DNA from: Gemmatimonadota bacterium
Lineage (GTDB): Bacteria; Gemmatimonadota; Gemmatimonadetes; Longimicrobiales; Gaopeijiaceae
DNA length: 64,000 nucleotides
Assembly (NCBI GenBank): GCA_012960225.1
Contig: DUBS01000003.1
Coordinates: 12,145-76,144, forward strand
Direction of reading: 5' to 3'
Below the pieces are notes generated by a model, which saw nothing but the letters and a program-made list of their open reading frames with translations, was not told the origin of the DNA and searched no databases. Below, piece by piece: positions 5,790 through 20,135 of this stretch; within the stretch, counting starts at the first letter, position 1, and each line of letters opens with the position of its first letter. A program made the position numbers and the translations under genes.

Positions 5790-5938
5790 ATCTACCTCGA
5801 AGCGGGACACTTGACGAGCATCATGTGCTTGAAGATCCGACCAACGGGCCTTCAGCGCTAGATTGCCGGCAGCCGAGTCACCGGTTACTTCATTGCCCTC
5901 CAATACCTGAGGGTGGCCGTGCACAAGATCGAGGTGAG

Positions 5939-7069
5939 ATGACAATCAAGAGACGAGACTTCCTTAAGAAGGCTGGTGCAGGGACGGGATTAGCAGCGCT
6001 CGGCGCATGTAGCGGTGGTGAGGGTACAACCGAAGCAGTTGATGGAGGGGTGGTGAGTGGCCCACGTGTAGAATGGAGACTGGCTACGAGCTATCCCCCT
6101 AGTGTCGATATCCTTTACGGGGCGACGGATCGACTCGCCGAACAAGTTTCAGCAGCGACTGGTGGCAACTTCACGATTCGCGTTTATGCACCAGGGGAAA
6201 TCGTACCGCCTCTCCAAGTCATGGACGCCGTCATGCAGGGTACGACGCAATGTGGGTTCTCCCCTGGGTATTACTATACGGGGAAACATCCAGCCTTGGC
6301 TTTTGACACTACCGTCCCATTCGGGTTTGATCCGCGCCAGCAAGTATCATGGCTTACCCACGGAGGTGGGCTTGATCTGATTAATTCGATTTATGCAGAC
6401 TTTGGTGTAATCAGCTTTCCGATGGGGAACACAGCGGGGCAAATGGGTGGTTGGTTCCGTGAACCTGTTGGGGGCCTCTCGGATCTTACGGGACTCAGAA
6501 TGAGGATCCCTGGGATTGGCGGCGAAATCATGTCGAGACTCGGCGTCACAGTTCAGAACCTCGGAGCTCCTGAGATTTACCCAGCACTCGAAAGAGGAGC
6601 AATCGATGCCACTGAGTGGGTTGGGCCACATGACGATGAGAAGCTGGGATTTCATCAAATTGCAAAGAATTACTACTACCCTGGTTGGTGGGAGCCTGGC
6701 TCCACCGCGAGCCTTATGGTCAACAGAGAAGCTTGGGATGAGCTGCCAACTGCGTACCAGGAAATCATAAAGACCGCGTGCGGTGACATACTCTCTTGGA
6801 CGCTAGCTGGGTATGATGAAGCTAATCCAGCTGCACTCCAGCGCTTGATCAAAGAAGAGGGAGTCATGCTCCATGAATTTTCGTTAGAGATCATGGAGGC
6901 AGCATGGAGGGAATCAAACGCCTACCTGGAGGAACAGGCAGCGGCTGATCCTGTATTTCGAACGGTCTTCGAGTCCTTCAGTGCATTCCGGAACCAAGCG
7001 TTTCCCTATTCCGCAGGAAATGAGGGCGCATACGCCAGGTTTACGTTCCCAAAAATCGAAGCAGGATGA
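5939..7069 (+). CDS. dctP: TRAP transporter substrate-binding protein (DctP family) with a Tat-type signal
   Basis: MTIKRRDFLKKAGAG twin-arginine leader and a DctP/COG4663-like core (GWFR, EWVGPHDDEKLGF, YYYPGWWEP). GAGGTG lies just upstream of the ATG at 5939. Confidence 0.85.
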   Translation: MTIKRRDFLKKAGAGTGLAALGACSGGEGTTEAVDGGVVSGPRVEWRLATSYPPSVDILYGATDRLAEQVSAATGGNFTIRVYAPGEIVPPLQVMDAVMQGTTQCGFSPGYYYTGKHPALAFDTTVPFGFDPRQQVSWLTHGGGLDLINSIYADFGVISFPMGNTAGQMGGWFREPVGGLSDLTGLRMRIPGIGGEIMSRLGVTVQNLGAPEIYPALERGAIDATEWVGPHDDEKLGFHQIAKNYYYPGWWEPGSTASLMVNREAWDELPTAYQEIIKTACGDILSWTLAGYDEANPAALQRLIKEEGVMLHEFSLEIMEAAWRESNAYLEEQAAADPVFRTVFESFSAFRNQAFPYSAGNEGAYARFTFPKIEAG

Positions 7070-7113
7070 GTGATAGGAACTCGTGAACGACCGTACCTAC
7101 CCCAACCACCTTA

Positions 7114-7740
7114 TCACGTAAGTTCAGTCTCTAGCGCTCTATAACAATACCAAGCAACTGCGCTGCGCCATGGACGGTAAGGATCGCCGAGTGGTCTGAG
7201 TTCTTTTTTGCTCGGATCCTCTAACATACCCTGCACTTTGGCGTAACCTACCCTCACGGCCAGATCACCCACTGGCCACACATCCGGACGGTGTAACCGG
7301 AACATAAGGTACATATGGGCCGTCCATTCACCGATTCCTTTGACGACGGTCAGCCTGCTCACGATTTCTTCATCAGACTTCATTTCCAGATCGTGTACTT
7401 CTAATTCGCCGGACTGAATCTTTTTCGCCAAATCACGAATCGCGCCCAACTTGTTACCCGAAAGCCCGGCACCGCGGAGTGTAGATTCTGACAAGCGCAA
7501 AACGTTCTCTGGAGAGACATCACGTCCCACAGCTTCAATGAATCGGCCGTGAATCGTGCGAGCCGCCTTCCCAGCGAGTTGCTGATAACAGATCGTCCTG
7601 ACCAAGTAAAAGAAGGGCGTGACGTCTGATACGGGCAGATGTATTGATCCGACACGTCTCACCCAAGGCCCGAAGGTTGGGTCCCTTCTAAGCTTTCTGT
7701 GTCCGCCGACCCAGACGCGAGCGAGCTCTTCTTCAGTCAT
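7114..7740 (-). CDS. HhH-GPD DNA glycosylase (3-methyladenine glycosylase II-like)
   Basis: Helix-hairpin-helix motif (LTVVKGIGEWTAHMYLMF) followed by the PVGD catalytic Asp context. Confidence 0.8.
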   Translation of the reverse strand: MTEEELARVWVGGHRKLRRDPTFGPWVRRVGSIHLPVSDVTPFFYLVRTICYQQLAGKAARTIHGRFIEAVGRDVSPENVLRLSESTLRGAGLSGNKLGAIRDLAKKIQSGELEVHDLEMKSDEEIVSRLTVVKGIGEWTAHMYLMFRLHRPDVWPVGDLAVRVGYAKVQGMLEDPSKKELRPLGDPYRPWRSAVAWYCYRALETELT

Positions 7741-7780
7741 ACGTCCCAGCCTTTCAAAAAGTCGGCAGAGGCTCGCTTAG

Positions 7781-9079
7781 TTATTTCGGAACTGTCACCC
7801 ATATCAATCCAGCAAGAACAACGAGTTGGATTGCGATGAATGGGACCACACCCTTGTACATCGAGATCGTTGGTATCTCAGGGGGAGTGACACCCCTTAG
7901 GTAAAAGAGACTGAACCCGAATGGCGGTGTGAGGAATGATGTCTGGATATTCACCGCCAACACTATTCCAAGCCACACAAGGTCCACACCTAAGATCAAC
8001 GCCGGCGGCACAATAAGTGGAACAATGATGAATGCGATCTCAAAGAAGTCGATAAAGAATCCGAGTACAAAAACCACTAGGTTCACCACGATGAGGAAGC
8101 CCAAGGCTCCGCCCGGGATACCAGTCAATGCACCTTCAATCCAAAGATCTCCTTCCAGGCCACGGAATACGAGAGCAAAGGCAGTTGAGCCAATCAGAAG
8201 AAACACCACCATGATCGTGAGGCGGCTCGTATCCTCCATTGCTGATCTAAGTGCCGACATCGTCAGTGATCGATTGGCCATCGCGAGAAGCATCGCACCC
8301 ACAGCACCAAGCGCTCCCGCTTCTGTTGGTGTAGCGATCCCAGCAAAAATGCTGCCTAGAACGACAATGATGAGAATAAGCGGTGGGAGAAGTGATAGCA
8401 CTACCTGCTTAGCCAACTCCATCCCAGTAGAGCGCATGTGTTCCGGTAGCGCTGGAGCAACTTCCTTATTGAAGAAAGCGAGAATAGCAACGTAGGCTGC
8501 ATATCCTCCGGTGAGGATAAGCCCCGGAACCAATGCAGTGCGGAAGAGATCTCCAACACTGACACCCATCTGGTCACCAAGTACAATCAGGACGATCGAA
8601 GGTGGAATGATCTGCCCCAGTGTACCCGCGGCCGAAATAACCCCAAGGCTGAGTTTTTCATCATACCCGTTACGGAGCATAACGGGGAGCGATATGAGAC
8701 CCATAGCTGTCACGCTAGCTCCTACCACACCGGTTGCAGCTGCAAGCAGCGCCCCGACAAAGATCACGCCAACGGCGAGGCCACCACGAAATCGACCGAA
8801 TAGAACTCCGATTGTCTCAAGGAGTTGCTCAGCAAGCTTGCTCTTCTCAAGGACTGTACCCATGAAAATAAAGAACGGAACCGCAAGCAGAACTTGGTTC
8901 GACATAGTACCGAATGTCCGCTCCGGAAGAGCGTAGAGGAGCACTAGATCGAATTGACCAAACATCGATGCTAATCCGGCAAATATCAGTGCAGTACCAG
9001 CTAGCGAAAACGCCACTGGATACCCGCTGAAGATCATAACAAGAACCCCAATAAACATCGCGGGTCCCCACAAATTCAT
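7781..9079 (-). CDS. dctM: TRAP transporter large permease
   Basis: A 432-aa polytopic membrane protein with DctM-like repeats. Its start overlaps the dctQ stop (ATGA-type overlap). Confidence 0.9.
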   Translation of the reverse strand: MNLWGPAMFIGVLVMIFSGYPVAFSLAGTALIFAGLASMFGQFDLVLLYALPERTFGTMSNQVLLAVPFFIFMGTVLEKSKLAEQLLETIGVLFGRFRGGLAVGVIFVGALLAAATGVVGASVTAMGLISLPVMLRNGYDEKLSLGVISAAGTLGQIIPPSIVLIVLGDQMGVSVGDLFRTALVPGLILTGGYAAYVAILAFFNKEVAPALPEHMRSTGMELAKQVVLSLLPPLILIIVVLGSIFAGIATPTEAGALGAVGAMLLAMANRSLTMSALRSAMEDTSRLTIMVVFLLIGSTAFALVFRGLEGDLWIEGALTGIPGGALGFLIVVNLVVFVLGFFIDFFEIAFIIVPLIVPPALILGVDLVWLGIVLAVNIQTSFLTPPFGFSLFYLRGVTPPEIPTISMYKGVVPFIAIQLVVLAGLIWVTVPK

Positions 9080-9678
9080 GAGCCTGCCTCATGCTGCGAG
9101 TCTACAGTTGAGAGTTCTTGGTCGCCATCACTTCTCAAAATACTTACCTGCTTCAAAATCTGGCTGTAGCCCTGGCCAACCAGCAGAACGAACGAGAGCA
9201 AGATCACCATCTTGATAGGGTACCGCGGGAGGCCACCAGGATCTGGTGACATCTCACGTATGGACCAGGAATTTTGGACTGCAGGCCATGACACGTACAG
9301 CATTACAACGCAGAACGGGATGAGAAAAAGAACGTGCCCTATAAGGTCTATCCAAGCTCGTTTCTTGGGGTTGAGTTCCGAATAGAGTACATCCACGCGA
9401 ACATGTACGTCATGTCTTAACCCATACGCTGCACCCAGTAGGAAAATCAGGCTAAAGAGGTACCATTGCAGCTCAGTCGGAGGAGTAAGATTGAACGAAA
9501 GCCCCAGACCTCTTGAGGAATATCTGAGAACCGCAGTAGCTGCTCCTACGAGCACCATGACCAACGTCAGCCAACGAATCATGGCGCCAATCCTCTCATT
9601 GAAGCCATCGATGGCCCTGGCCACTCTACTCAGGATTGACATGGTCGGGATGATGGGCTGCGTTGCAACTATAGGCAA
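9076..9678 (-). CDS. dctQ: TRAP transporter small permease
   Basis: A roughly 190-200 aa protein with 4 TM helices, immediately upstream of and overlapping dctM. An alternative start is at 9642. Confidence 0.8.
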   Translation of the reverse strand: MPIVATQPIIPTMSILSRVARAIDGFNERIGAMIRWLTLVMVLVGAATAVLRYSSRGLGLSFNLTPPTELQWYLFSLIFLLGAAYGLRHDVHVRVDVLYSELNPKKRAWIDLIGHVLFLIPFCVVMLYVSWPAVQNSWSIREMSPDPGGLPRYPIKMVILLSFVLLVGQGYSQILKQVSILRSDGDQELSTVDSQHEAGS

Positions 9679-9684
9679 TGAGTC

Positions 9685-10542
9685 CTAGAGAACGTATCCA
9701 CCATCAACAGTGATGATCGCTCCGGTGATGTGCCGGGCTGCCTCGGAGCAAAGAAACAAAACCACACCCGCCACATCTTGCGGATCACCCAAACGGCCAA
9801 GAGCGGATCTCTCTCGAGCATGGTCTAGAATCTCAGGTGACACACCTTCGGTGAGTCGGGTCGTGCGCACATAACCAGGAGCGACAGCATTCACATTGAT
9901 GTTCTTTGGCCCCAGCTCAACCGCGCTACTGCGAGTTAGGCCGATGAGACCGGCCTTAGACGAAGAATAATTGGAGATACCGAACTCAGTACGCATTCCA
10001 TGCACCGATGTGATGTTGACAATCTTCCCATATTCTTGGGCACGCATTGAGGGGGCTACAGCCCTCGTGAAGTGAAAGGCGCCGTCCAAGTTAGTTCGGA
10101 GCACAGCTTCCCAGTCATGATCAGTCATAAGCCAGATCGGTGCATCACGTCCGATCCCAGCGTTGTTCACCAAGACATCAATGCTCCCAAGTTCCTCCTC
10201 TGTCTCGGACACGAAAGAATTGACGTCACTTGATTCCCTTACATCGCAAGAGCAGGAAAGCACTTGCACTTTCATCTGTCGTAACTCACTCGCTACCTCT
10301 TTAGCTTCGCTACGAGATTGACCTCCGTCATCCAGATAACAAAACGCAATATGAGCGCCACAACGCGCGAGTTCCAAGGCAACCGCACGGCCAATCCCAC
10401 TCGATCCACCTGACACGATTGCAACTTTCCCGCTCAGGTTCTCGACCTGCAGGACAGGCTGGGGTTGGGGTTCTGCCGTGACCTCATCGAGGAGTGCCTC
10501 GACGGCGTTGGTGGCCGTCTCCGAGAGTGGAGAATCCGACAT
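9685..10542 (-). CDS. SDR family oxidoreductase
   Basis: VSGGSSGIGRAVA, NNAG and YSSSK motifs, with a 35-aa N-terminal extension. Confidence 0.85.
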   Translation of the reverse strand: MSDSPLSETATNAVEALLDEVTAEPQPQPVLQVENLSGKVAIVSGGSSGIGRAVALELARCGAHIAFCYLDDGGQSRSEAKEVASELRQMKVQVLSCSCDVRESSDVNSFVSETEEELGSIDVLVNNAGIGRDAPIWLMTDHDWEAVLRTNLDGAFHFTRAVAPSMRAQEYGKIVNITSVHGMRTEFGISNYSSSKAGLIGLTRSSAVELGPKNINVNAVAPGYVRTTRLTEGVSPEILDHARERSALGRLGDPQDVAGVVLFLCSEAARHITGAIITVDGGYVL

Positions 10543-10719: not shown

Positions 10720-11499
10720 TCAGCCATAGCGACCCTCAATATAGTCAGCGGTCTCTTCTTCTTGGGGTGCTAGAAAGATTTGTTCGGTTACACGGTGCTC
10801 AACCATTCTGCCCAATAGCATGAACGCGGTCTCCTCACTCGCTCGTCTTGCTTGGGCCATATTGTGAGTCACAATCAAAATCGTATAGTCTCCGTGCAGT
10901 TCCCAAATGAGTTCTTCAAGTGCCGCAGTAGCCTTGGGGTCCAACGCTGAAGTAGGCTCATCCATAAGAAGCACGGTTGGCTTGACCGGTAGAAGTCTCG
11001 CTATACAAAGCTTCTGCTGCTCTTCAAGGGACAGTCCAGTAGCCTCTCGACCAAGTCGATCTTTCACTTCATCCCAAAGCAGAACACGACGGAGCGCATT
11101 CTCGACAATTTCGTCCTCTTCCAGTTTGTTGAATTTCTCATCGGCACGGTGGATCCGGTGAGCAAAGAGCACGTTATCTCGTATTGACAGGGGGAGAGGG
11201 TTAGGGCGCTGAAAGACCATCCCTACGTGACGCCGAAGCTGGGACAACTCGACGTCATCACTCAGTATGTCCTGATCAAGGACATGTATCTCCCCTGTCG
11301 TCCGCACATAGTCACCCAATCGCTCATTGATGCGATTCACAGCGCGGAGAAGGGTCGATTTTCCACACCCCGATGGGCCTATGAGCGCAGTGATTGATCC
11401 TCGCTTGACCTGAAGATCAACTTCGAAAAGCGCCTGAAAATCTCCGTACCATAAGCTGACGTTCTGGATGTCGATCGCGAGCGTAGGGGCCTCAACCAA
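10720..11499 (-). CDS. pstB: phosphate ABC transporter ATPase PstB paralog with a degenerate signature motif (copy B)
   Basis: Walker A (GPSGCGKST), Q-loop (VFQRPNP), Walker B (LLMDEPTSALD) and H-loop (VTHNMAQA) are canonical. The signature is LSLEEQQKL instead of LSGGQQQRL. Confidence 0.9.
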   Translation of the reverse strand: MVEAPTLAIDIQNVSLWYGDFQALFEVDLQVKRGSITALIGPSGCGKSTLLRAVNRINERLGDYVRTTGEIHVLDQDILSDDVELSQLRRHVGMVFQRPNPLPLSIRDNVLFAHRIHRADEKFNKLEEDEIVENALRRVLLWDEVKDRLGREATGLSLEEQQKLCIARLLPVKPTVLLMDEPTSALDPKATAALEELIWELHGDYTILIVTHNMAQARRASEETAFMLLGRMVEHRVTEQIFLAPQEEETADYIEGRYG

Positions 11500-12256
11500 A
11501 GCGGCCTTCCAGGTAGTCCAGGGTGCGACGGTCTTTTACTTCACCGCTAAAAAGGGCTTCTGTTTCTCCTACCTCTATCAACTTACCATCCAGGAAGAAA
11601 GCAGTGCGATCAGCAAGCCGACGTGCCTGTTGCACGAGATTTGTCACCAAGATGATAGTGATCTCCTCCTTTAGTTCCTTGAGCACGTCCTCGATACGCA
11701 TCGTGGTCACCGGATCTACGGCAATAGAGAATTCATCAAGCAGCAAAAGTTCGGGATCTTGAGAAAGTGCCCTCGCAATCGTGAGCCTCTGTTGTTGACC
11801 GCCTGAAAGCAGGCTGCCAAGGACATCAAGACGATCTTTCACCTCATCCCAGAGTGCCGCTCGCATGAGGCACTGCTCCACGATTTCATCGAGGGCACTC
11901 TTATCCTTGATTCCTGAGAGCCGCGGAGCTAGTGCGACATTGTCATAGATGCTCAACGGTAGCCCTACAGGTAGAGGGAAAACGACACCAATGCGACGGC
12001 GTAATGCGTAGACGTTCTTGATCTCGGAGATGTCGTGACCATCGAATACGATCGAACCATCGACCGTCATATTCTCCTGTAGCATCTCCATCCGATTCAA
12101 CGTCCGGAGAAAACTCGTTTTCCCGCTGCCAGCAGGCCCGATAATGCCAAAGATCTCATGCTCATGAACATCTAGAGAAACGCCAGAGAGAGCCTGCTGG
12201 CTACCGTATAAGATGTTTAGATCTCTCACAGCAAGTTTCACGTCCGTAACTACCAC
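11492..12256 (-). CDS. pstB: PstB-like ATPase paralog with degenerate Q-loop and H-loop (copy A)
   Basis: Walker A (GPAGSGKTS) and signature (LSGGQQQRL) are canonical. The Q-loop is VVFPLP (Q to P), the D-loop region is DEFSIAVD, and the H-loop is VTNLVQQA (H to N). Confidence 0.85.
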   Translation of the reverse strand: MVVTDVKLAVRDLNILYGSQQALSGVSLDVHEHEIFGIIGPAGSGKTSFLRTLNRMEMLQENMTVDGSIVFDGHDISEIKNVYALRRRIGVVFPLPVGLPLSIYDNVALAPRLSGIKDKSALDEIVEQCLMRAALWDEVKDRLDVLGSLLSGGQQQRLTIARALSQDPELLLLDEFSIAVDPVTTMRIEDVLKELKEEITIILVTNLVQQARRLADRTAFFLDGKLIEVGETEALFSGEVKDRRTLDYLEGRFG

Positions 12257-13164
12257 TTCTTTTTTCCTCTCAGGTAGCTCCGGAACCAGATTGATCCTGC
12301 ATTCATGAGGAGAACTAGTGTGATCAACGTGAGAGCCGTCCCGTATTTGAGTTCATCAGGCGCACCAGGCACGGCAGTTGAGATCACGAATAAGTGCATT
12401 GCCATCGCCATCGTTTGATCAAAGACACTGGTGGGGAGGAATGGGAAAAAGAATGCTGCTCCAGTAAACATGATCGGCGCAGTTTCCCCCGCTGTTCGCG
12501 ATACTGACAGAATGACACCGGTGAGGATCCCACTTATCGCGTTAGGGAGTACGACTGTTCTAATCGTCTGCCAGCGAGTGGCGCCCATGTTCCAACAAGC
12601 TTCTCGAAAGGCCATTGGAACTGCCTGGAGAGACTCACGAGTAGCGACAATAACCAACGGTAGTGTCATAACTGCAAGCGTGAGACTCGCTGCTAAGATG
12701 CTCGTCCCGAATCCGGCAAAGATCACGAAAGCGCCAACCCCAAATAGTGCGTGTACGATTGAGGGCACCCCCGCGAGGTTGATAATCGCGAGGTTGATTC
12801 CTCGGGTCAGCCAGCTATCCGACGCATATTCTGAAAGGTAGATCGCAGCTGCCACGCCCACAGGCACCGAAGCAACCAGTGAGACCGCTACGAGCCATAT
12901 CGTCCCCACAAGGGCTGGCCAAATACCGCCTGCAGTCATCCCGTCACTAGGATAAGAAAAAAGGAATTCAAAAGAGATCGCTGGCCCGCCCCTAACTAAC
13001 AGGACTCCAAAAATAATCCCGACTGGCACAACCAGGATCAGAGTCATCAAACCAAAGAGAGCCCTAAAAAGCCATTGAAGCCGATGGTTACGCGTGTTGA
13101 GCGGGGTCGCCGCAAACATCAGGGACGGCCCAGAAACTCCACCATCCCCTTCAGAATGGGTCAC
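12250..13164 (-). CDS. pstA: phosphate ABC transporter permease PstA
   Basis: Six-TM permease with an EAA-type loop (ESLQAVPMAFREACWNMGATRWQT), positioned between pstC and pstB. Confidence 0.9.
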   Translation of the reverse strand: MTHSEGDGGVSGPSLMFAATPLNTRNHRLQWLFRALFGLMTLILVVPVGIIFGVLLVRGGPAISFEFLFSYPSDGMTAGGIWPALVGTIWLVAVSLVASVPVGVAAAIYLSEYASDSWLTRGINLAIINLAGVPSIVHALFGVGAFVIFAGFGTSILAASLTLAVMTLPLVIVATRESLQAVPMAFREACWNMGATRWQTIRTVVLPNAISGILTGVILSVSRTAGETAPIMFTGAAFFFPFLPTSVFDQTMAMAMHLFVISTAVPGAPDELKYGTALTLITLVLLMNAGSIWFRSYLRGKKKW

Positions 13165-14090
13165 GTTCTCCTCGCCCCCTTAACCACGAAGTCTGCTGTA
13201 AGGTTGATGATAAACGTCACCACAAAAAGCAAGATTCCTAAAGTAAAAAGGGCTCGGTAATGGTCCGAGCCAACCGGAGCATCACCGAGTTCTGCTGCAA
13301 TTGTTGCAGTGATTGCGCGCACTGAATCAAATGGGCTCGTCGGGATCTGGATCGCGTTCCCGCTTGCCATGAGCACCGCCATTGTCTCGCCAAAAGCCCG
13401 ACCTACTCCAAGAAGAACCGCCGCGACAAGACCATTCCTGCCTGCCGGAAGTACAACTCTGAAAATCACCTGCCACTTTGTGGCACCCATGGCTTCAGCT
13501 GCCTCACGGTAGGTATCCGGAACCGCCTTGAGTGCATCTTCAGCAATCGTTGTCATGATCGGGGCAGCCATTAGCCCGAGGATAATACCTGAGTTGAGGA
13601 CTCCGATTCCGACCGGGACGTCAAACATGTCAATAATCAGGGGGTTCATGATCGATAGGCCGATGAAGCCCCATACAACCGACGGGATAGCAGCCAAGAG
13701 TTCAACCAACACCTTAAGGGACTCTCGGAGTCTGCCTGTGGCGAACTCACCGATGAAGATGGCCGCACCAAGTGAGAATGGCACCGAGACCAGCATGGCA
13801 AGACCCGTTACGCTAGCGGTTCCTGCTATAAGCCCGAGAACCCCGTACCTAGGATTCTGAGGGGATGTTGGCCGCCAGGTTATGCTTCCAAGAAACTCCC
13901 GGACATTCAATGGCCCCGCTATGAAACCCACACCCTCTTTGGTGATGAAGACAAAGATCCCGATGATGAAGATGATCGCGGAAATCCCACCCACAAACAC
14001 CAAGAACGTTACCGCTTTATCGACGTACCAATCTCTCCCACGGTGATCAAAGTCCATTGGTGCAGAGGGTTTGACTCGCTTAGTGAGCAT
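13161..14090 (-). CDS. pstC: phosphate ABC transporter permease PstC
   Basis: Permease with an EAA loop (EDALKAVPDTYREAAEAMGATKWQV). It overlaps pstA by 4 nt. Confidence 0.9.
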   Translation of the reverse strand: MLTKRVKPSAPMDFDHRGRDWYVDKAVTFLVFVGGISAIIFIIGIFVFITKEGVGFIAGPLNVREFLGSITWRPTSPQNPRYGVLGLIAGTASVTGLAMLVSVPFSLGAAIFIGEFATGRLRESLKVLVELLAAIPSVVWGFIGLSIMNPLIIDMFDVPVGIGVLNSGIILGLMAAPIMTTIAEDALKAVPDTYREAAEAMGATKWQVIFRVVLPAGRNGLVAAVLLGVGRAFGETMAVLMASGNAIQIPTSPFDSVRAITATIAAELGDAPVGSDHYRALFTLGILLFVVTFIINLTADFVVKGARRT

Positions 14091-15162
14091 CCGGCCCTGC
14101 CAGGGTCTTCATGAGATCCTGAACCCGCACTGCGACCATCTTATACAGGTCTTCCAGCACATCCTTAGAGAACCCTTTCGGGATATCGATTGACCACTCT
14201 AGGACAATCGTTCGGAATGGAACTTCAGCTATATCCTCCAGCACACCGTCTTCGAGAGCGACGATGACATGATAGGGTTGGGCAGGTTCTCCCAAGCCTT
14301 CAATAGGGGACGGTCTCTTATGACTAACATCCATCCCCTGCTCATCCATGAACTCGATCAGGACTGGGTCAAGCGCTCCAGCAGGGCTGACCCCGACACT
14401 CGAATATCTGCCGCTCTCAGGGAAAGCTTTTTCAGCATAAGCTTCTGCCATTTGACTTGCCCGATTGTTCTCCTCACCCACAAACAAAATCCTGAAGATA
14501 CGTGGGTCGCGTTCTCCTCCTGTGATCGCGAAGATCGCCTGCTCACTGATGTTATCCGCCTGCTCAGCAACCCGCTTGAGCAGGTTGTTGATCCTAACCA
14601 ACGCAAAGCTGTCCTGTAGCGGGACCACCCGGTCATTTGCTAATTCCACTAGGTGGTCCAGCACTGTTTTTAACGTCACATCTACAGGGCGAACCAACCC
14701 CTCGTGCGTTTGCAGCGCACGTTCAACATCCTCTTCAAAGAAGGCGGTTAGTGCTTCGCCCAGTGCATGGCCTGCCTGCTGAGCGATGACTTCAACATCA
14801 CGCGTGACACTTTCAGGGGGACGTACCGTCAATCGTAAAACTTCTCTTCCGATCGTGCCGGCATAGTCACCGATCCGTTCCAGCGCCACGTTAAGTCGGA
14901 GAACTGCTGAGGCGAAACGAAGGTGTCCCGCACTCGGCGCATGTCGGATGATGAAGGCATGACACAGGTAGTTGATCTCCTTGATCCGCCGATTTACCTG
15001 ACGGTCTCCTAGGATCACATTGTTCGCGAGATCCTTGTCCCATCCAATAAGCGACTGGACGGTGTCTTTCACCTGATTTTCGACGAGTCCGGCTACCTTG
15101 CGCAGCTTTCTCCGAATCTCATTGAGATCCGCCTGCATTCTCTGCTCATATTGAGGTGTCAT
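14080..15162 (-). CDS. phoU: PhoU fused to a C-terminal cysteine-less ArsC/LMW-PTP-like domain
   Basis: Residues ~1-215 are a two-repeat PhoU (ERIGDYA and RVAEQADNISEQA). Residues ~222-355 align to thioredoxin-type ArsC/LMW-PTP (ILFVGEENNRASQMAEAY versus [18 protein letters not shown] from memory), but no catalytic Cys is present. Confidence 0.8.
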   Translation of the reverse strand: MTPQYEQRMQADLNEIRRKLRKVAGLVENQVKDTVQSLIGWDKDLANNVILGDRQVNRRIKEINYLCHAFIIRHAPSAGHLRFASAVLRLNVALERIGDYAGTIGREVLRLTVRPPESVTRDVEVIAQQAGHALGEALTAFFEEDVERALQTHEGLVRPVDVTLKTVLDHLVELANDRVVPLQDSFALVRINNLLKRVAEQADNISEQAIFAITGGERDPRIFRILFVGEENNRASQMAEAYAEKAFPESGRYSSVGVSPAGALDPVLIEFMDEQGMDVSHKRPSPIEGLGEPAQPYHVIVALEDGVLEDIAEVPFRTIVLEWSIDIPKGFSKDVLEDLYKMVAVRVQDLMKTLAGPDAH

Positions 15163-15198: not shown

Positions 15199-16083
15199 CT
15201 ACGCACAGCTAACTGAACCAGCTGCTGCAAATCCCTTATCCACCAAAATACACTGACCGGCTTCGCCAAGAATCCAGTCCATGTACTCCTTGATTATTCC
15301 TGTCGGCTCCCCAGCAGTGTACATAAAAAGCGGCCTCGCGATGGGGTAGCTTCCATCAATCGCGCTCTCTGCCGACGGTGACACACAGTCCCCCCTGTCA
15401 GTCAAGATACAGGGCATCTCTACTCTCTCCGTGGCGTAAGCGAGACCACTATATCCGATAGCACAGGGCGTATTTCCGACTAGGTCGACCACCTCTGACG
15501 ATCCATTCATATCCAGCGATCCAGGCTTGTACTCAGCCTGACCTAGCACTGCTTCCTTGAAGTAGGCATATGTTCCTGAGTTGTTCTGCCGGCTCACCCT
15601 TATGATCTCATCGCTTGAGCAACCAGGAATGCTTACTCCCAGTTCACTCCAAGTCTCGTAAGCACCACCCTCTGCATAGATCTCAGCAAGCTGTGAGATG
15701 GAGAGCGCATCGATCGGATTGTCAGGGTGAAGAAATACTGCAAGGGCGTCAAAGCCTACGACATGCTCTATAGGATCTATCCCTCGGCTACGTGCTTCCT
15801 CAATCTCACTCTCAGTCATCGCCCTGCTTGTGTTGGCAATATCCACCGTCCCATTAACCATTGCACTAATCCCAGTCCCGGAACCACCACCATTGACCGC
15901 CACGGCAACGCTAGGATTGATATCACCGTAGCTCTCTGCCCAGGCCAAGGCTACAAAGACGATCGTGTCCGAGCCCTTATTTTGGATGACGGTGCGTCTT
16001 GCACCTGAACTTCCATCAGCGCCTCCGCAGGCTAGGGCTACAAAAAGAACCAGAAGAGCTCCGAACATTCGGTTCATAGGCAC
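15199..16083 (-). CDS. pstS: phosphate-binding protein PstS (lipoprotein-type signal)
   Basis: PstS family core (GSDT, GGGSGTGI, TSR), and LFVALAC lipobox. GTG at 16083. The ATG at 16077, preceded by GAGGG, is the more likely start. Confidence 0.9.
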   Translation of the reverse strand: MPMNRMFGALLVLFVALACGGADGSSGARRTVIQNKGSDTIVFVALAWAESYGDINPSVAVAVNGGGSGTGISAMVNGTVDIANTSRAMTESEIEEARSRGIDPIEHVVGFDALAVFLHPDNPIDALSISQLAEIYAEGGAYETWSELGVSIPGCSSDEIIRVSRQNNSGTYAYFKEAVLGQAEYKPGSLDMNGSSEVVDLVGNTPCAIGYSGLAYATERVEMPCILTDRGDCVSPSAESAIDGSYPIARPLFMYTAGEPTGIIKEYMDWILGEAGQCILVDKGFAAAGSVSCA

Positions 16084-16160
16084 ACCCTCATACTAGAGGT
16101 CATGACGCAATTGCTCATATCAAAAGCTATACCCGAACTACTCTCCTACAACGCCTCAAT

Positions 16161-16190
16161 TGTATCAGCAATGTATCAATCGTATCAGCC
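16161..16190. promoter_or_regulatory. Pho-box-like phased direct repeats
   Basis: TGTATCAgcaaTGTATCAatcGTATCA: a 7-bp unit repeated with 11-bp then 9-bp spacing, 80-105 nt upstream of pstS in the divergent pstS/porin gap. The architecture matches PhoB/PhoP-type boxes. Read toward pstS the unit is TGATACA. Confidence 0.5.
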
Positions 16191-16240: not shown

Positions 16241-16405
16241 CGAGTTACACTTTGAGAGCTCTGTGGAATTCAGCACTGAATCATCAGTACATGCCAGGAT
16301 TTCTGTGACTGTTTCGTTACGCAATATCCGGCGATCCGTGACGTCAACGTGGCAACCTCTACATGTACGAAGGTTGCAATTTCCCTCCAAGGAGATAACG
16401 GACTC

Positions 16406-17467
16406 ATGAGACATCGTCGGGTTTTTCTGACGCTCCTATTGGCCATGCTTGCAGTTCCTGACGTCGCCGAGTCCCAAATTAAAATCTCCTCAAGAGCATC
16501 ATCAATCCAAGTCGGGGGAAGGGTGCATGCTCAGTACGCCGCCTCATCAGTTGGTGGTGCAGACAATGACTTCTTTCTGCGACGTGTACGCTTGATTGCT
16601 GATATCACATTGAGCGATTTCGTTGCTGCTCGTGTTCAGCCGGACTTTGCCCGCGGAAAGATCGCCCTTCAAGACGTCTACGTGAGGCTCGGATCTTCCA
16701 GCAAGTTCCGAGTTTGGGTGGGGCAGTTCAAACGTGCGTTTGACATCTTTAAACTATCGAGTTCAACCGACCTTTCAATCATCGAACGAGATGCTCGTGT
16801 TGAAGGGGTCTCGGGATGTTCTGGGGTATCCGGCATATGCTCTTACTCACGGCTTACAGAGCAATTGAAGTACGCCGAGCGAGATCAGGGTATCAAGATT
16901 GATGGCTCCTCGGGTCGCCTGAGCTACCAAGCCACTCTCACGAATGGCACCGGGATTAATGTCTCCGACGAAAACGATGCTAAGTCCTATTCGGGACGTG
17001 TCACTTTCGCTGCATCTGAAAAGGTCAGCCTCTCGGGGCAACTCGGTGTCCACGACTATTTGATCGAGTCAGCGGAAAAAAGCACAGCGCGGGGAATCGC
17101 CTGGGGTGGAGATGTGGAGTTTGGTACTTGGAGAGATGGCGCTCACATCCAAGCATCAATAATCCGCGGAGACAATTGGAAGTCACTCGATTCAAGTAAC
17201 TCGGAAGCGACATTTTTCACTACTCAGATTGTCGCGTCTTATTACACTGAACATCGCGGTCAATTAGCTGGAATCGAGCCTCTACTGCGGCTGAGCTTTG
17301 GTGACCCTGACACAGCTGTTGGCAAGAACGCAGGGACCGTCGTTACCCCAGGGTTGATGTTCTACCTACAGGGCAAGAGCAAGATCGGGGCAAACCTTGA
17401 CATTTACTCACCCCAATCAGGCGACACAGCCCTATCATTTAAGGTCCAGACCTACCTTTATTTCTGA
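16406..17467 (+). CDS. phosphate-selective porin (OprO/OprP family)
   Basis: Signal peptide MRHRRVFLTLLLAMLAVP. Porin_O_P-like N-terminal block (FFLRRVRL ... VGQFKRAFD ... IERD) and a C-terminal YLYF. AAGGAG lies upstream of the ATG at 16406. Confidence 0.8.
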   Translation: MRHRRVFLTLLLAMLAVPDVAESQIKISSRASSIQVGGRVHAQYAASSVGGADNDFFLRRVRLIADITLSDFVAARVQPDFARGKIALQDVYVRLGSSSKFRVWVGQFKRAFDIFKLSSSTDLSIIERDARVEGVSGCSGVSGICSYSRLTEQLKYAERDQGIKIDGSSGRLSYQATLTNGTGINVSDENDAKSYSGRVTFAASEKVSLSGQLGVHDYLIESAEKSTARGIAWGGDVEFGTWRDGAHIQASIIRGDNWKSLDSSNSEATFFTTQIVASYYTEHRGQLAGIEPLLRLSFGDPDTAVGKNAGTVVTPGLMFYLQGKSKIGANLDIYSPQSGDTALSFKVQTYLYF

Positions 17468-17540: not shown

Positions 17541-19268
17541 CTATTCCGTCGGCACGGTAAATCGAACTGTTGTTCCCTGACCGAGTTGACTCTCCGCGAC
17601 AACCTCTCCGCCCATTTCCGATACTAGGTGGCGAACAATCGCTAACCCGAGGCCCGTTCCTCCAAAGTCTCTGGCTCTAGCAGAATCAGCTCGATAGAAA
17701 CGCTCAAAAATTCGTGGCAATGACTCAGCAGGAATTCCGTCACCGTCATCTGAGATCACCACCTCAACCATAGAATCTTGGGTCAGGGCCATAGAAACAT
17801 TGATTGAGCCCCCGCTATCGGTATGCCGAATAGAATTCTCGAGCAAGTTTCTAAAGATGTGAAATAGCCCCTCGCGGTCACCCATGACCCTCAGGTTACC
17901 GCGGATATCGAAGGAAATTCCTTCCTTGCCTTCGATGTCTCTTACCACCTGCCATGCCTCTTGTGTTACCTCCTTCGTATCCACTGACTCTCGGCGCCCA
18001 GTCCATCCACCTGATTCCAGTTTAGATAGATCTAAGAGGTCCTCCACTAGGTGCTCTAGTCGGAGCGTGTTCTTACGAATCGAGGTAAGGAACTCCAATT
18101 TGAGCTTCTCTGGCGGGTCATCATCAAGCAGTGTTTCCGCATACCCTCGAATCGAGGTAAGAGGTGTCTTCAGTTCATGCGATGCGTTTGCTACAAAGTC
18201 ACGTCTTACTTGTTCAAGCCGGCGAATTTCACTGATGTCTAACAACGTTGTGACGGCACCCCCTGGATCTAAGGCACGAGATGAGACCAGTAAGTGTCTC
18301 CCATTGACCTCAACTTCATCTGAATTACCTGGCCTGATTACGGAATCCTCCAGGATAGAGCGCAGTTTGTTATCGCTGACCACGGAGTTGACTGGAGCAA
18401 GAACTGGTGTATCTAGTAACTCAAGGAGTGCACGAGCACTCCGATTCATACGGATTACCCTGGCATCCTCACTAAGCGCAATAACACCCTCAGCCATGCA
18501 ATCAATGAGTGTCTGCATTTCTTCACGCTCATGCCCAAGCTCGGTCAACCGAGACTGAAGTTCATCAGTGAGTAGATTGAACGCATCAGTAACATCTTGA
18601 AGCTCGGTGACCTTCGCATCCGGAACTCTCACCCTGTAATTCCCTTTACTGAACTGTCTCGCCCGTTGCGCCAAGAGTACCAGTGGCCTCGTTAGAGCGA
18701 TACTGATCATATAAGCCGCTGCAAGAGCAAAGAGCATGGCTAATAAACCAGTCAGAGCAACAGTCCTCTGCACTCCAGAGACTGTACGCTCTATACCTGT
18801 TTGTGGGGCAGCAATTCTCATAATAACCGAGGAGCCGTCGAGTATGATCAGTCTAGCTGCATAGAGAAGTGGCTCGGCAACAGTCTCGCTCGTGCGTTCC
18901 GCAAAACTCACGGTCTCACCACCAACTAACACGCCCTGAACCTCAGGGCGGTCGTAGTGATTCTCAACCTCAGGCAGTCGCGCTAGTTCTACGTGAGAAT
19001 CACCGAGTACACGGCCATCAGGATCAATGAAGGTGACTCTGTAGCCAATGCGATCCGTGATCTCTCCTGCAACCGAATCCAGGTCGACTAATTCAGCTTC
19101 CTGAACGACCCATTCACCTAGGGCGAGCTGCCGCTCCAAATCCGCCCGAACCGTCAATCCAAGTTCCCTTCTGAGGCCACTGCTTACTAATAGCACAATC
19201 AGGACTAGAAGAAGCCCAATGACGCCTAAGAAAGCGGCAAAGAGAGGGTATTGGATCCTTATGCGCAT
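17541..19268 (-). CDS. phoR: sensor histidine kinase PhoR-like, with a roughly 140-aa extracytoplasmic domain
   Basis: TM1, periplasmic segment, TM2, HAMP, PAS, HisKA (SHELKTPLTSIRGY) and HATPase (N, G1, G2 boxes). Confidence 0.85.
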   Translation of the reverse strand: MRIRIQYPLFAAFLGVIGLLLVLIVLLVSSGLRRELGLTVRADLERQLALGEWVVQEAELVDLDSVAGEITDRIGYRVTFIDPDGRVLGDSHVELARLPEVENHYDRPEVQGVLVGGETVSFAERTSETVAEPLLYAARLIILDGSSVIMRIAAPQTGIERTVSGVQRTVALTGLLAMLFALAAAYMISIALTRPLVLLAQRARQFSKGNYRVRVPDAKVTELQDVTDAFNLLTDELQSRLTELGHEREEMQTLIDCMAEGVIALSEDARVIRMNRSARALLELLDTPVLAPVNSVVSDNKLRSILEDSVIRPGNSDEVEVNGRHLLVSSRALDPGGAVTTLLDISEIRRLEQVRRDFVANASHELKTPLTSIRGYAETLLDDDPPEKLKLEFLTSIRKNTLRLEHLVEDLLDLSKLESGGWTGRRESVDTKEVTQEAWQVVRDIEGKEGISFDIRGNLRVMGDREGLFHIFRNLLENSIRHTDSGGSINVSMALTQDSMVEVVISDDGDGIPAESLPRIFERFYRADSARARDFGGTGLGLAIVRHLVSEMGGEVVAESQLGQGTTVRFTVPTE

Positions 19269-19373: not shown

Positions 19374-20135
19374 CTATTCCAGATTCTTCTTTAGGCGATA
19401 ACCAAATCCCCGCACAGTCTGAATGGAATCACCAGCTGTACCGAGCTTGGCTCGTAGGCGCTGCACATGTATGTCAACTGTACGTGTCTCAAGTCGATCC
19501 GACACATCAGCCTCAACATCCCAAGCTTTTTCCAAAAGCTGCCTTCTACTTAGTGTTCGCTCACGGCACTCTAGAAGCGCACGGAGCAATCTGAACTCCG
19601 TCGGCGTCAGGGATACATCTTCGTCCAAAACCGAGACCTGCATCGCGCTAACATCCATATGAATGGGGCCCACTCGGAAAACTCTTAATCCCGCAGATCC
19701 TCCTCCAGATTCAGGTGCTCTCCTCAGGATAGCCTGAACCCTGAGCACCAGCTCTCGTGGACTAAATGGTTTGGTTAAGTAATCGTCAGCGCCCAACTCC
19801 AAACCTGCAATGCGCTCTTCCTGTTCCTTCTTGGCAGTCAATACTAAGACGGGGATTCCCTCAGTTTCCGGGTCATCCTTCAAGCGACCCAAAACCTCAT
19901 CACCACTAATACCAGGAAGCATACGATCCAGAACAATGAGGTCGGGAATGTCTCGTCCCACCGCCCTCAGAGCTTCAATCCCATTCAAAGTAGTCTCAAC
20001 CCTGAAACCTGCGCGGGTCAGTTGGTAGCCGATAAGAGCAGCAATGTCAGGTTCATCCTCTACGACTAGGACTCTTTGATTCCCGGAAGTAACCTGGGAA
20101 CCGGGTTCCTTACTATCATTGACAAACGTTTTCAT
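19374..20135 (-). CDS. phoB: OmpR/PhoB-family response regulator
   Basis: Receiver domain (VLVVEDEPDI ... LIVLDRMLPG ... LTAK) plus a winged-helix output (LTPTEFRLL ... VDIHVQRLRAKL ... GFGYRL). It sits upstream of phoR. Confidence 0.85.
   Translation of the reverse strand: MKTFVNDSKEPGSQVTSGNQRVLVVEDEPDIAALIGYQLTRAGFRVETTLNGIEALRAVGRDIPDLIVLDRMLPGISGDEVLGRLKDDPETEGIPVLVLTAKKEQEERIAGLELGADDYLTKPFSPRELVLRVQAILRRAPESGGGSAGLRVFRVGPIHMDVSAMQVSVLDEDVSLTPTEFRLLRALLECRERTLSRRQLLEKAWDVEADVSDRLETRTVDIHVQRLRAKLGTAGDSIQTVRGFGYRLKKNLE

Follow-up and report, generated by a model that had tools for sequence, protein, structure and literature searches.

A tandem pair of reciprocally degenerate PstB ATPases predicts an asymmetric Pst phosphate importer in Gemmatimonadota and other phyla

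Introduction

The pst operon of a marine Gemmatimonadota bacterium ends with two adjacent pstB genes, and the products of both, here termed copy A and copy B, depart from the consensus ABC motifs. The locus raises the question of whether the two proteins serve one importer and, if so, with how many hydrolytic ATP sites. As the textbook importer of phosphate at high affinity, Pst provides the input to the Pho regulon. It has been treated as containing a homodimer of PstB whose two ATP sites are equivalent, reportedly also in a 2026 cryo-EM study of the E. coli transporter. An earlier note on this DNA had proposed that A and B combine into a heterodimer with one fully consensus and one fully degenerate site. 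Automatic annotation labels both proteins merely 'phosphate ABC transporter ATP-binding protein'. Asymmetric ATP sites are already known among ABC proteins, but for Pst phosphate importers they appear to be undescribed, as the note had supposed, and nothing relevant to a degenerate PstB pair was found in the searchable literature.

Results and Discussion

The pst operon encodes two overlapping PstB paralogs

The operon lies entirely on the minus strand in the order pstS-phoU fusion-pstC-pstA-A-B, and copy B, which starts with a TTG codon, overlaps the end of copy A by 8 nt (Table 1). No ABC ATPase besides A and B, a second canonical pstB included, was found in the window, the whole 64-kb stretch of DNA that was analysed. 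The PhoU protein of the operon is fused to a phosphatase-like domain, and nothing relevant to this PhoU-LMWPc fusion was found in the searchable literature. Related loci carry the A/B pair in a like pst operon context, and the fusion co-occurs with the pair there. The PstB model TIGR00972 was the best full-length match for both copies (297.4 bits for A and 322.6 bits for B), with both scores under its curated equivalog cut-off of 343.2 bits. The two copies share 42% identity with each other, and their mean identities to canonical PstBs are 43.5% (A) and 47% (B).

Table 1. Coordinates of the pst locus and of the ABC motifs of copies A and B within the window.
Feature	Position	Strand	Remarks
pstB copy B	10720..11499	-	259 aa; canonical catalytic elements, degenerate signature
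Copy B H-loop His H212	10864..10866	-	Canonical; His of the predicted consensus site
Copy B Walker B/D-loop LLMDEPTSALD	10939-10971	-	Canonical
Copy B signature LSLEE for LSGGQ	11020..11034	-	Predicted to face Walker A of copy A
Copy B Q-loop Q97	11209-11211	-	Canonical
Copy B Walker A GPSGCGKS	11356-11379	-	Canonical
pstB copy A	11492..12256	-	254 aa; cis elements of the predicted degenerate ATP site, intact LSGGQ for the predicted consensus site
Copy A N206 for H-loop His (E. coli H210), VTNLVQQA	11639..11641	-	20/20 A-type sequences
Copy A Walker B and D-loop LLLDEFSIAVD	11714..11746	-	Asp-Glu retained; Pro to Phe, SALD to IAVD
Copy A signature LSGGQ	11795..11809	-	Intact; would complete the consensus site in trans
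Copy A P94 for Q-loop Gln (E. coli Q98), GVVFPLPVGLP	11975..11977	-	20/20 A-type sequences
Copy A Walker A GPAGSGKT	12116..12139	-	Lys and Thr retained; Lys in 20/20 A-type sequences
Copy A A-loop Tyr Y17	12206-12208	-	Retained, 20/20 A-type sequences
pstA permease	12250..13164	-	TIGR00974, 255 bits, over cut-off
pstC permease	13161..14090	-	TIGR02138, 276 bits, over cut-off
PhoU fused to LMW-PTP/ArsC-like domain (phoU-LMWPc)	14080..15162	-	Nucleophile Cys absent
pstS family phosphate-binding protein	15199..16083	-	TIGR02136, 214 bits, over cut-off
Phosphate-selective porin O/P-like gene	16349..17467	+	Pfam PF07396; divergent from pstS
phoR-like histidine kinase	17541-19268	-	ORF; counterpart in relative L091 has HAMP/HisKA/HATPase_c (Pfam)
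phoB-like response regulator	19374-20135	-	ORF; counterpart in relative L091 has Response_reg/Trans_reg_C (Pfam)

The motif substitutions of copies A and B are reciprocal

Translation of the exact coordinates reproduced both open reading frames and every motif position given in the earlier note. The HMMER alignment of copy A with E. coli PstB (PDB 9k3x) extends over 249 residues (E=5e-63) with all motifs in register. Since it is ungapped across every motif, the possibility that the missing residues are present but shifted was rejected: the Gln, the His and the GGQ are replaced where they would be expected. Copy A keeps Walker A, the Walker B Asp-Glu pair and a complete LSGGQ signature, while P94 occupies the position of the Q-loop Gln, in 120 of 120 close homologues, and N206 that of the H-loop His. 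The D-loop, which had been described as lost, is altered by the change of SALD to IAVD and of the preceding Pro to Phe, but its Asp is retained. Copy B, in turn, is canonical save for its LSLEE signature. The consensus motif set is thus incomplete in both proteins, A being without the Q-loop Gln and the H-loop His and B without the GGQ of the signature.

The A/B pair is conserved, constrained and co-inherited across phyla

In all 19 related loci that carry an A-type gene, a B-type gene lies directly downstream and the substitutions are identical. These loci belong to Gammaproteobacteria, Planctomycetota, Myxococcota, Acidobacteriota, Poribacteria, Verrucomicrobiota, Binatia and Gemmatimonadota relatives, and the arrangement is likewise found in the close Gemmatimonadota relatives L089-L092. 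The pairing and the substitutions are therefore kept among relatives, and the design with one degenerate site, as read from the motifs, spreads over at least eight phyla (at least seven besides Gemmatimonadota). Among the organisms carrying the pair are marine Gemmatimonadota, which are abundant, and Accumulibacter, known for accumulating polyphosphate.

The substituted residues are invariant in 20 of 20 A-type and 19 of 19 B-type sequences, the fixed replacements being P, G, F, I and N in A and L, E, K and P in B; for comparison, approximately 37% of the columns are invariant overall. Chance is ruled out as the source of the motif pattern because the same substituted residues are invariant across distant phyla. 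The Leu and Glu at the two signature Gly positions occur in all 19 B-type sequences, within the variants LSLEE, LSLEQ and LQLEQ. The A-loop Tyr, the Walker A Lys and the Walker B Asp-Glu are kept in all 20 A-type sequences.

Strong purifying selection acts on both copies: dN/dS is 0.06-0.18 in A and 0.09-0.12 in B, values similar to those of pstC and pstA. The scores of both proteins below the curated TIGR00972 cut-off could be taken to suggest that one of them is a decaying duplicate under relaxed constraint, its complementarity to the other being coincidental. This explanation, which the earlier note had named as one that would undo its proposal, was rejected on the dN/dS values and on the invariance of the substitutions across phyla, and its probability is practically nil. 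Full-length orthologues 87-100% identical are present in 120 metagenomic clusters, and the reciprocity is repeated in a second PstB lineage described below. The A clade and the B clade are each monophyletic with 100% bootstrap, and the pairwise identities of A and of B correlate across loci (r=0.88). Thus, A and B co-evolve.

Predicted architecture of the two ATP sites

An ABC ATP site draws Walker A, Walker B and the A-, Q- and H-loops from one NBD and the signature from its partner; the D-loops sit in the middle of the dimer interface and are assigned to neither site alone (PMC7756269). The Q-loop Gln, the H-loop His and the signature have roles in positioning the gamma-phosphate and the attacking water (PMC3971661). 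The shared make-up of the sites has been observed directly in E. coli PstB, where one PstB is seated on PstA and the other on PstC, and the E179Q mutation abolishes ATPase activity (PMC12976172). By motif content, a site with all consensus elements arises only in an A:B dimer, whereas an A2 or B2 homodimer would hold two defective sites. The likely reading is that A and B pair obligately, as a PstB heterodimer in which only one site is catalytic. Within one PstSCA(B-A)(B-B) importer, the two would be differing nucleotide-binding subunits, one resting on each of the permeases PstC and PstA.

In the ATP-closed form of such a dimer, site 1 would comprise Walker A, the A-loop, Q97, D180/E181 and H212 of copy B together with the LSGGQ of copy A, and would be a full consensus hydrolytic site. 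Site 2 would comprise Walker A, the A-loop and D174/E175 of copy A, with P94 in place of the Gln and N206 in place of the His, facing the LSLEE of copy B. The proposed division into one consensus and one degenerate site is therefore upheld by the split of the motifs, with one refinement: since the D-loops are central to the interface, the consensus site, although consensus in its catalytic residues, adjoins the altered D-loop of copy A. We infer that ATP is most likely still bound at site 2 and hydrolysed very slowly or not at all, so that transport would run on a single ATP hydrolysed in each cycle, at site 1. Site 2 would then have a structural or allosteric role, as a nucleotide site that biases the closing and opening of the NBDs, an equilibrium that PhoU and PhoR are also thought to read. 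E. coli PstB mutants locked in the open or the closed state signal opposite phosphate states (PMC5775613).

The degenerate site probably still binds nucleotide, as the A-loop Tyr, the Walker A Lys and the Walker B Asp-Glu persist throughout the A-type sequences. A phosphate-binding role, which the earlier note had allowed for, is unlikely in view of the two glutamates added to the B signature. These glutamates might themselves repel the gamma-phosphate and leave site 2 open or empty. On another reading, the LSLEE glutamates would mimic phosphates in the P-loop of copy A and make of a nucleotide-free site 2 a permanent, nucleotide-independent latch between the subunits. The presence of Glu at the second Gly position in all 19 B-type sequences, and in the LSGEQ, LSPEQ and LSAEQ signatures of the second lineage, is compatible with such a latch, but the adenine-stacking A-loop Tyr, invariant in copy A, is hard to explain if no nucleotide is bound, and the degenerate site of Pdr5, with the signature LNVEQ, binds ATP nonetheless. 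The latch is thus very improbable.

Another possibility is that site 2 is alive and hydrolyses ATP slowly as a timer, the importer using two ATP asymmetrically. D174/E175, K46 and Y17 of copy A are kept in 20 of 20 homologues, and the Walker B Glu, lost from many classical degenerate sites (e.g. E to N in Pdr5), is among them; since the Glu is kept and the Asn could partly stand in for the His, site 2 may turn over slowly. However, the change affects the Gln of the Q-loop, the His of the H-loop and, in trans, the GGQ of the signature all together and is fixed, which makes a two-ATP importer rather unlikely.

A heterodimer is not the only use to which adjacent pstB genes can be put. The PstB1 and PstB2 of E. 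faecalis have non-overlapping functions (PMC12096839), and neighbouring genes therefore need not make one heterodimer. A and B could likewise work separately and have distinct cellular roles, either as the homodimers A2 or B2 or, in the case of A, as a subunit that signals to PhoU/PhoR and takes no part in transport; an interaction of E. coli PhoU with PstB, as cited in PMC12976172, and the co-occurrence of the PhoU fusion with the pair would fit such separate use. Against separate use, the defects are reciprocal and would leave both sites of either homodimer defective, A and B are always adjacent, with overlapping genes and correlated divergence, and the E. faecalis proteins are both fully canonical and thus a different case. 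Separate use is accordingly judged quite improbable, and the obligate heterodimer is retained as the preferred reading.

Comparison with known ABC systems

The predicted A/B dimer resembles the heterodimeric ABC exporters (TM287/288, TmrAB, BmrCD, TAP1/2 and CFTR/ABCC) in its non-identical NBDs with one consensus and one degenerate site. The likeness drawn in the earlier note holds: the cis motifs are changed in one NBD and the signature in the other. In the exporters the degenerate site keeps ATP bound and regulates NBD contact (PMC3971661; PMC7756269). These proteins are type I exporters with TMD-NBD fusions, in contrast to the A/B system, a type I importer that has a binding protein and whose NBDs are separate subunits, and they typically change the Walker B Glu, whereas copy A keeps it and replaces the Q-loop Gln and the H-loop His.

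The PDR-type transporters S. cerevisiae Pdr5 and C. albicans Cdr1 share with the A/B pair the replacement of the H-loop His and a signature, LNVEQ, comparable to LSLEE, LSLEQ and LQLEQ. The degenerate site of Pdr5 holds ATP without hydrolysing it (PMC8421411; see also PMC7756269), and its LNVEQ provides a precedent for a hydrophobic residue and a Glu at the two Gly positions of a degenerate signature. Pdr5 is, in contrast, a eukaryotic full-length exporter that has also lost the Lys of Walker A and the Glu of Walker B, both of which copy A keeps.

Among Pst systems, the tandem PstBs of Firmicutes (B. subtilis PstBA/PstBB and E. faecalis PstB1/PstB2) are likewise encoded by adjacent genes in one pst operon, and a published model of the B. 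subtilis proteins joins PstBA and PstBB in a heterodimer (PMC11466899). Unlike A and B, both copies are canonical in these organisms, and five further tandem pairs from Firmicutes and Atopobiaceae (L035, L047, L054, L066 and L071) differ from the A/B pair in the same way. The A and B clades stand apart from the Firmicute pairs with 100% bootstrap each. E. coli PstSCAB (PDB 9k3x and 9k3s) has the same operon components and NBD fold family, but contains a PstB homodimer with two consensus sites instead of reciprocal paralogs. In the bacterial importers RbsA and NupO, too, the sequence marks one of the two ATP sites as degenerate (PMC11466899); their NBDs are fused, however, the second NBD is without the Walker A Lys, and they belong to another transporter class with other substrates and are not Pst.

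A second reciprocal PstB lineage

A search of a representative library, which was noisy with fragments and chimeras and was used for no more than spotting this lineage, revealed a second PstB lineage that is also reciprocal. Its first copy carries Ala for the Q-loop Gln and Asn for the H-loop His, and the next gene has the signature LSGEQ, LSPEQ or LSAEQ. A Clostridium MAG likewise holds a reciprocal PstB pair. In neighbour-joining bootstrap analysis, copy A and the first copy of the second lineage grouped in 100% of the replicates when all columns were used, but in 42% once the motif columns were masked, and the partner clades of the two lineages did not group.

Biological significance

The predicted asymmetric Pst importers, whether of the A/B lineage, of the second lineage or of the Clostridium type, might, as a speculative extension, represent a widespread class of phosphate sensor-transporters for which the searched literature yielded no description. 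The degenerate site would in that case be more than a loss of function, namely a neofunctionalised regulatory nucleotide site which, together with the co-inherited PhoU-pseudo-phosphatase fusion, forms a distinct Pi-signalling module reporting the state of the transporter or the cellular ATP/ADP to PhoR, with the fixed residues (Pro, Asn, Phe and Ile in A and Leu-Glu in B) setting the time for which the PstB dimer stays closed; there is perhaps some small chance that this is so. If the single-site heterodimer itself is correct, the A/B importers would constitute a natural experiment on the use of one versus two ATP per cycle by a type I importer, on the communication between two ATP sites and on the reading of NBD conformation by PhoU and PhoR. 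The energy cost of phosphate uptake and its regulation are of ecological and wastewater-treatment relevance in carriers such as the marine Gemmatimonadota and Accumulibacter.

Organisation of the phosphate operon

The phosphate operon runs on the minus strand in the order pstS, PhoU fusion, pstC, pstA and two pstB copies, A and B, which occupy its 3' end. TIGR00972, the PstB model, is the best match of both copies, and both score below its curated cut-off of 343 bits, which marks them as atypical. The TTG start of copy B lies within an 8-nt overlap with the stop region of A; no further ABC ATPase was found within the window. The nearest database proteins come from marine Gemmatimonadota MAGs. 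The divergent gene upstream of the operon encodes a phosphate-selective porin and is followed by phoR-like and phoB-like genes. The pstS/porin divergent intergenic region contains, at window positions 16149-16188, a 20-nt direct repeat in tandem whose minus strand displays TGATAC-like hexamers every ~10-11 nt, overlapping a -35-like CTGATA, and which represents candidate PhoB-binding (Pho box) sites. Directly downstream of the operon lies a TRAP transporter (window 5825-9678) with SDR and HhH-GPD glycosylase genes, an order kept in the close Gemmatimonadota relative L091.

Features of the phosphate operon and its downstream neighbourhood (window positions)
Feature	Position	Strand	Remarks
pstS	15199-16083	minus	above curated NCBIfam cut-off
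PhoU fusion protein gene	14080-15162	minus	2 PhoU repeats + C-terminal LMW-PTP/ArsC-like domain (Pfam PF01451, E=2.9e-7)
pstC	13161-14090	minus	above curated NCBIfam cut-off
pstA	12250-13164	minus	above curated NCBIfam cut-off
pstB copy A	11492-12256	minus	254 aa; TIGR00972, full length, 297 bits
pstB copy B	10720-11499	minus	259 aa; TIGR00972, full length, 323 bits
SDR gene	9685-10542		with TRAP transporter
DctQ	9076-9678	minus	TRAP transporter; fused or adjacent to DctM
DctM	7781-9079	minus	TRAP transporter; fused or adjacent to DctQ
HhH-GPD glycosylase gene	7114-7740		with TRAP transporter
DctP	5825-7069	plus	TRAP transporter

Reciprocal motif changes in the two PstB copies

Copies A and B are 42% identical. 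HMMER aligned A to E. coli PstB (PDB 9k3x, E=5e-63) without gaps across all motifs, and this register, together with translation of the exact coordinates, bears out the substitutions that the earlier note had described in both copies; the Gln and His of A are truly replaced and its motifs are not shifted. The D-loop of A, reported there as lost, is altered (Ser to Ile, Leu to Val and the preceding Pro to Phe) and retains its Asp.

Motifs of the two PstB copies
Motif	A	B
A-loop	Y17	Y18
Walker A	GPAGSGKT	GPSGCGKS
Q-loop	GVVFPLPVGLP, Gln replaced by P94 (11975-11977)	Q97
Signature	LSGGQ	LSLEE (11020-11034)
Walker B / D-loop	LLLDEFSIAVD	LLMDEPTSALD
H-loop	VTNLVQQA, His replaced by N206 (11639-11641)	H212

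Conservation of the A/B pair

With one genome scanned per GTDB species, 80 loci were recovered, the 19 best of which (60-76% identity to A) belong to Gammaproteobacteria including Chromatiaceae, an Accumulibacter MAG, Planctomycetota, Polyangiaceae and other 'delta proteobacteria', Holophagales, Thermoanaerobaculia, Poribacteria, Limisphaera (Verrucomicrobiota) and Binatia. In 19/19 an A-type gene is directly followed by a B-type gene, and both the pairing and the substitutions seen in the window are kept. The A-type consensus is [VM]V[FLAT]PLPVGLP, DEFSIA[VI]D and VTNL[VT] with LSGGQQQRL intact, and that of B is L[SQAL]LE[EQAK]QQKL with the remaining motifs canonical. In one subclade (L014-L018) the B signature has also lost its Ser (LQLEQ or LLLEQ) and the A residue preceding the Q-loop position is Ala, Thr or Leu in place of Phe. 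The other 61 loci, ~50% identical, encode canonical PstBs, including five tandem pairs (four in Firmicutes, one in Atopobiaceae) with two canonical copies each. In the Poribacteria MAG locus L014 (7609-9932), an ORF weakly similar to PstA, a third PstB-like gene that is divergent (MVFRKP, LSIGQ, GELD, ATNKR) and phoU as a separate gene lie downstream of A/B.

Neighbour joining places the A-type proteins in one clade and the B-type proteins in another, each with 100% bootstrap. Mean identity is 65% within A, 66% within B and 37% between them, and 43.5% (A) and 47% (B) to canonical PstBs. Pairwise identities of A and of B over the 19 loci correlate (r=0.88), thus indicating that the two genes are co-inherited. 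Across Gemmatimonadota, Gammaproteobacteria and Planctomycetota, copy A of the pstS-...-A-B module shows 70-76% protein identity, far above expectation for such distant phyla, which suggests horizontal spread of the module. Comparison of the window with three close Gemmatimonadota relatives sharing the operon gave dN/dS of 0.06-0.18 (A) and 0.09-0.12 (B), a range shared by pstC and pstA; this excludes decay of either copy into a pseudogene, an objection the earlier note had itself raised. Only ~37% of columns are invariant in each clade, while all replacements are, both in A (P, G, F, I and N at E. coli positions 98, 102, 180, 182 and 210) and in B (L, E, K and P at 156, 157, 161 and 169). This is constraint on a new state and not drift.

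Other reciprocally degenerate PstB pairs

A search of a representative library detected an abundant second lineage (loci L082, L085, L087; proteins P0155, P0271-P0389). In 119/120 homologues of its first copy, P0155, the Q-loop Gln is replaced by Ala (VFATPQPLP) and the H-loop His by Asn (VTNNTKQA), with LSGGQ, the Walker A Lys and the Walker B Asp-Glu all intact; the D-loop of this copy reads SGLD. Its partner, directly downstream, has LSAEQ, LSGEQ or LSPEQ in the three contigs long enough to cover the signature and is otherwise canonical. L087, the sole contig with the whole operon, has the order pstS-pstC-pstA-first copy-partner-phoU. With all columns, copy A and the second-lineage first copy group in every bootstrap replicate (100%), a share that drops to 42% once motif columns are masked; the partner clades do not group in the bootstrap tree. 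A Clostridium sp. MAG (L055, 973-5839) displays the order pstB-pstS-pstC-pstA-pstB'-phoU. Its pstB' combines an intact LSGGQ with Walker A GPANSGIT (Lys to Ile), Q-loop Gln to Asp, Walker B Glu to Arg and H-loop APHTV, and the partner signature is LSPGQ. Judged by these motifs, L055 is a third version of the asymmetric pair, in a more classical degenerate arrangement, and with A/B and the second lineage it makes reciprocal degeneracy in PstB pairs a recurrent feature.

Predicted ATP sites of an A:B heterodimer

The A-loop Tyr, Walker A Lys and Walker B Asp-Glu, residues required for Mg-ATP binding, are present in A in 20/20 sequences. An ABC ATP site is formed by the Walker A/B motifs and A-, Q- and H-loops from one NBD together with the other NBD's signature (PMC7756269), and in E. 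coli PstSCAB, PstA and PstC each carry one PstB, ATP glues the two PstBs together, and E179Q abolishes ATPase activity (PMC12976172). From this composition and arrangement, an A:B heterodimer would have one consensus site (site 1), with the catalytic elements of B in cis and LSGGQ of A in trans, and one (site 2) with A in cis and LSLEE of B in trans, where every change comes together. Both D-loops are located centrally in the dimer interface and belong to neither site alone (PMC7756269). The earlier note's fully consensus site is thus complete for catalytic residues, yet it stands beside the altered D-loop of A. A and B might alternatively be used separately; both sites would be defective in an A2 or a B2 homodimer.

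Site 2 has replacements in the elements by which gamma-phosphate and attacking water are positioned (PMC3971661), namely the Q-loop Gln and H-loop His in A and the trans signature in B. We consider probable an obligate PstB heterodimer in which the consensus site would hydrolyse one ATP per cycle and the second would bind nucleotide with no or very slow hydrolysis; heterodimer formation, nucleotide occupancy and stoichiometry are what we infer. Slow hydrolysis at site 2 is a rival reading, since A retains the catalytic Glu. Site 2 might instead be a nucleotide-free latch made by the glutamates of B. The signature of B resembles that of Pdr5 (LNVEQ), which also places a hydrophobic residue and Glu at the two Gly positions and whose degenerate site holds ATP and does not hydrolyse it (PMC8421411). 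The phosphate-binding site suggested in the earlier note seems unlikely given the two added carboxylates in the B signature.

PhoU fusion and Pho signalling

PhoU fused to the LMW-PTP/ArsC-like domain occurs in the operon of 13/19 A/B loci and in Gemmatimonadota relatives (window, L002-L010, L015-L017, L019, L089-L092). The domain looks like a pseudo-phosphatase, since all 14 orthologues have Gly, Asp or Ser in place of its nucleophile Cys and the P-loop Arg is often lost. Full-text literature searches found no description of this fusion. In E. coli, phosphate sufficiency is signalled by PstB mutants with a predicted locked-open state and starvation by those with a predicted locked-closed state (PMC5775613), and PhoU is reported, in work cited in PMC12976172, to contact PstB and PhoR; a site biasing NBD closure could thus also tune Pho signalling. 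The link is circumstantial. The fusion is missing from three A/B loci whose upstream flanks are complete (L011-L013), phoU stands as a separate gene in its place in L014, and the second lineage has an ordinary PhoU.

Relation to known systems

Among exporters, degenerate ATP sites are a familiar feature (PMC3971661, PMC7756269), and the fused-NBD importers RbsA and NupO have one by sequence (PMC11466899). Tandem pstB genes of Firmicutes are already known with canonical motifs (PMC12096839, PMC11466899); E. faecalis PstB1/PstB2 (PMC12096839) match the canonical tandem pairs of our survey, unlike A/B. No account of reciprocal degeneracy in PstB came up in full-text literature searches, and such a pair would be of real interest to specialists in ABC transporters and the Pho regulon.
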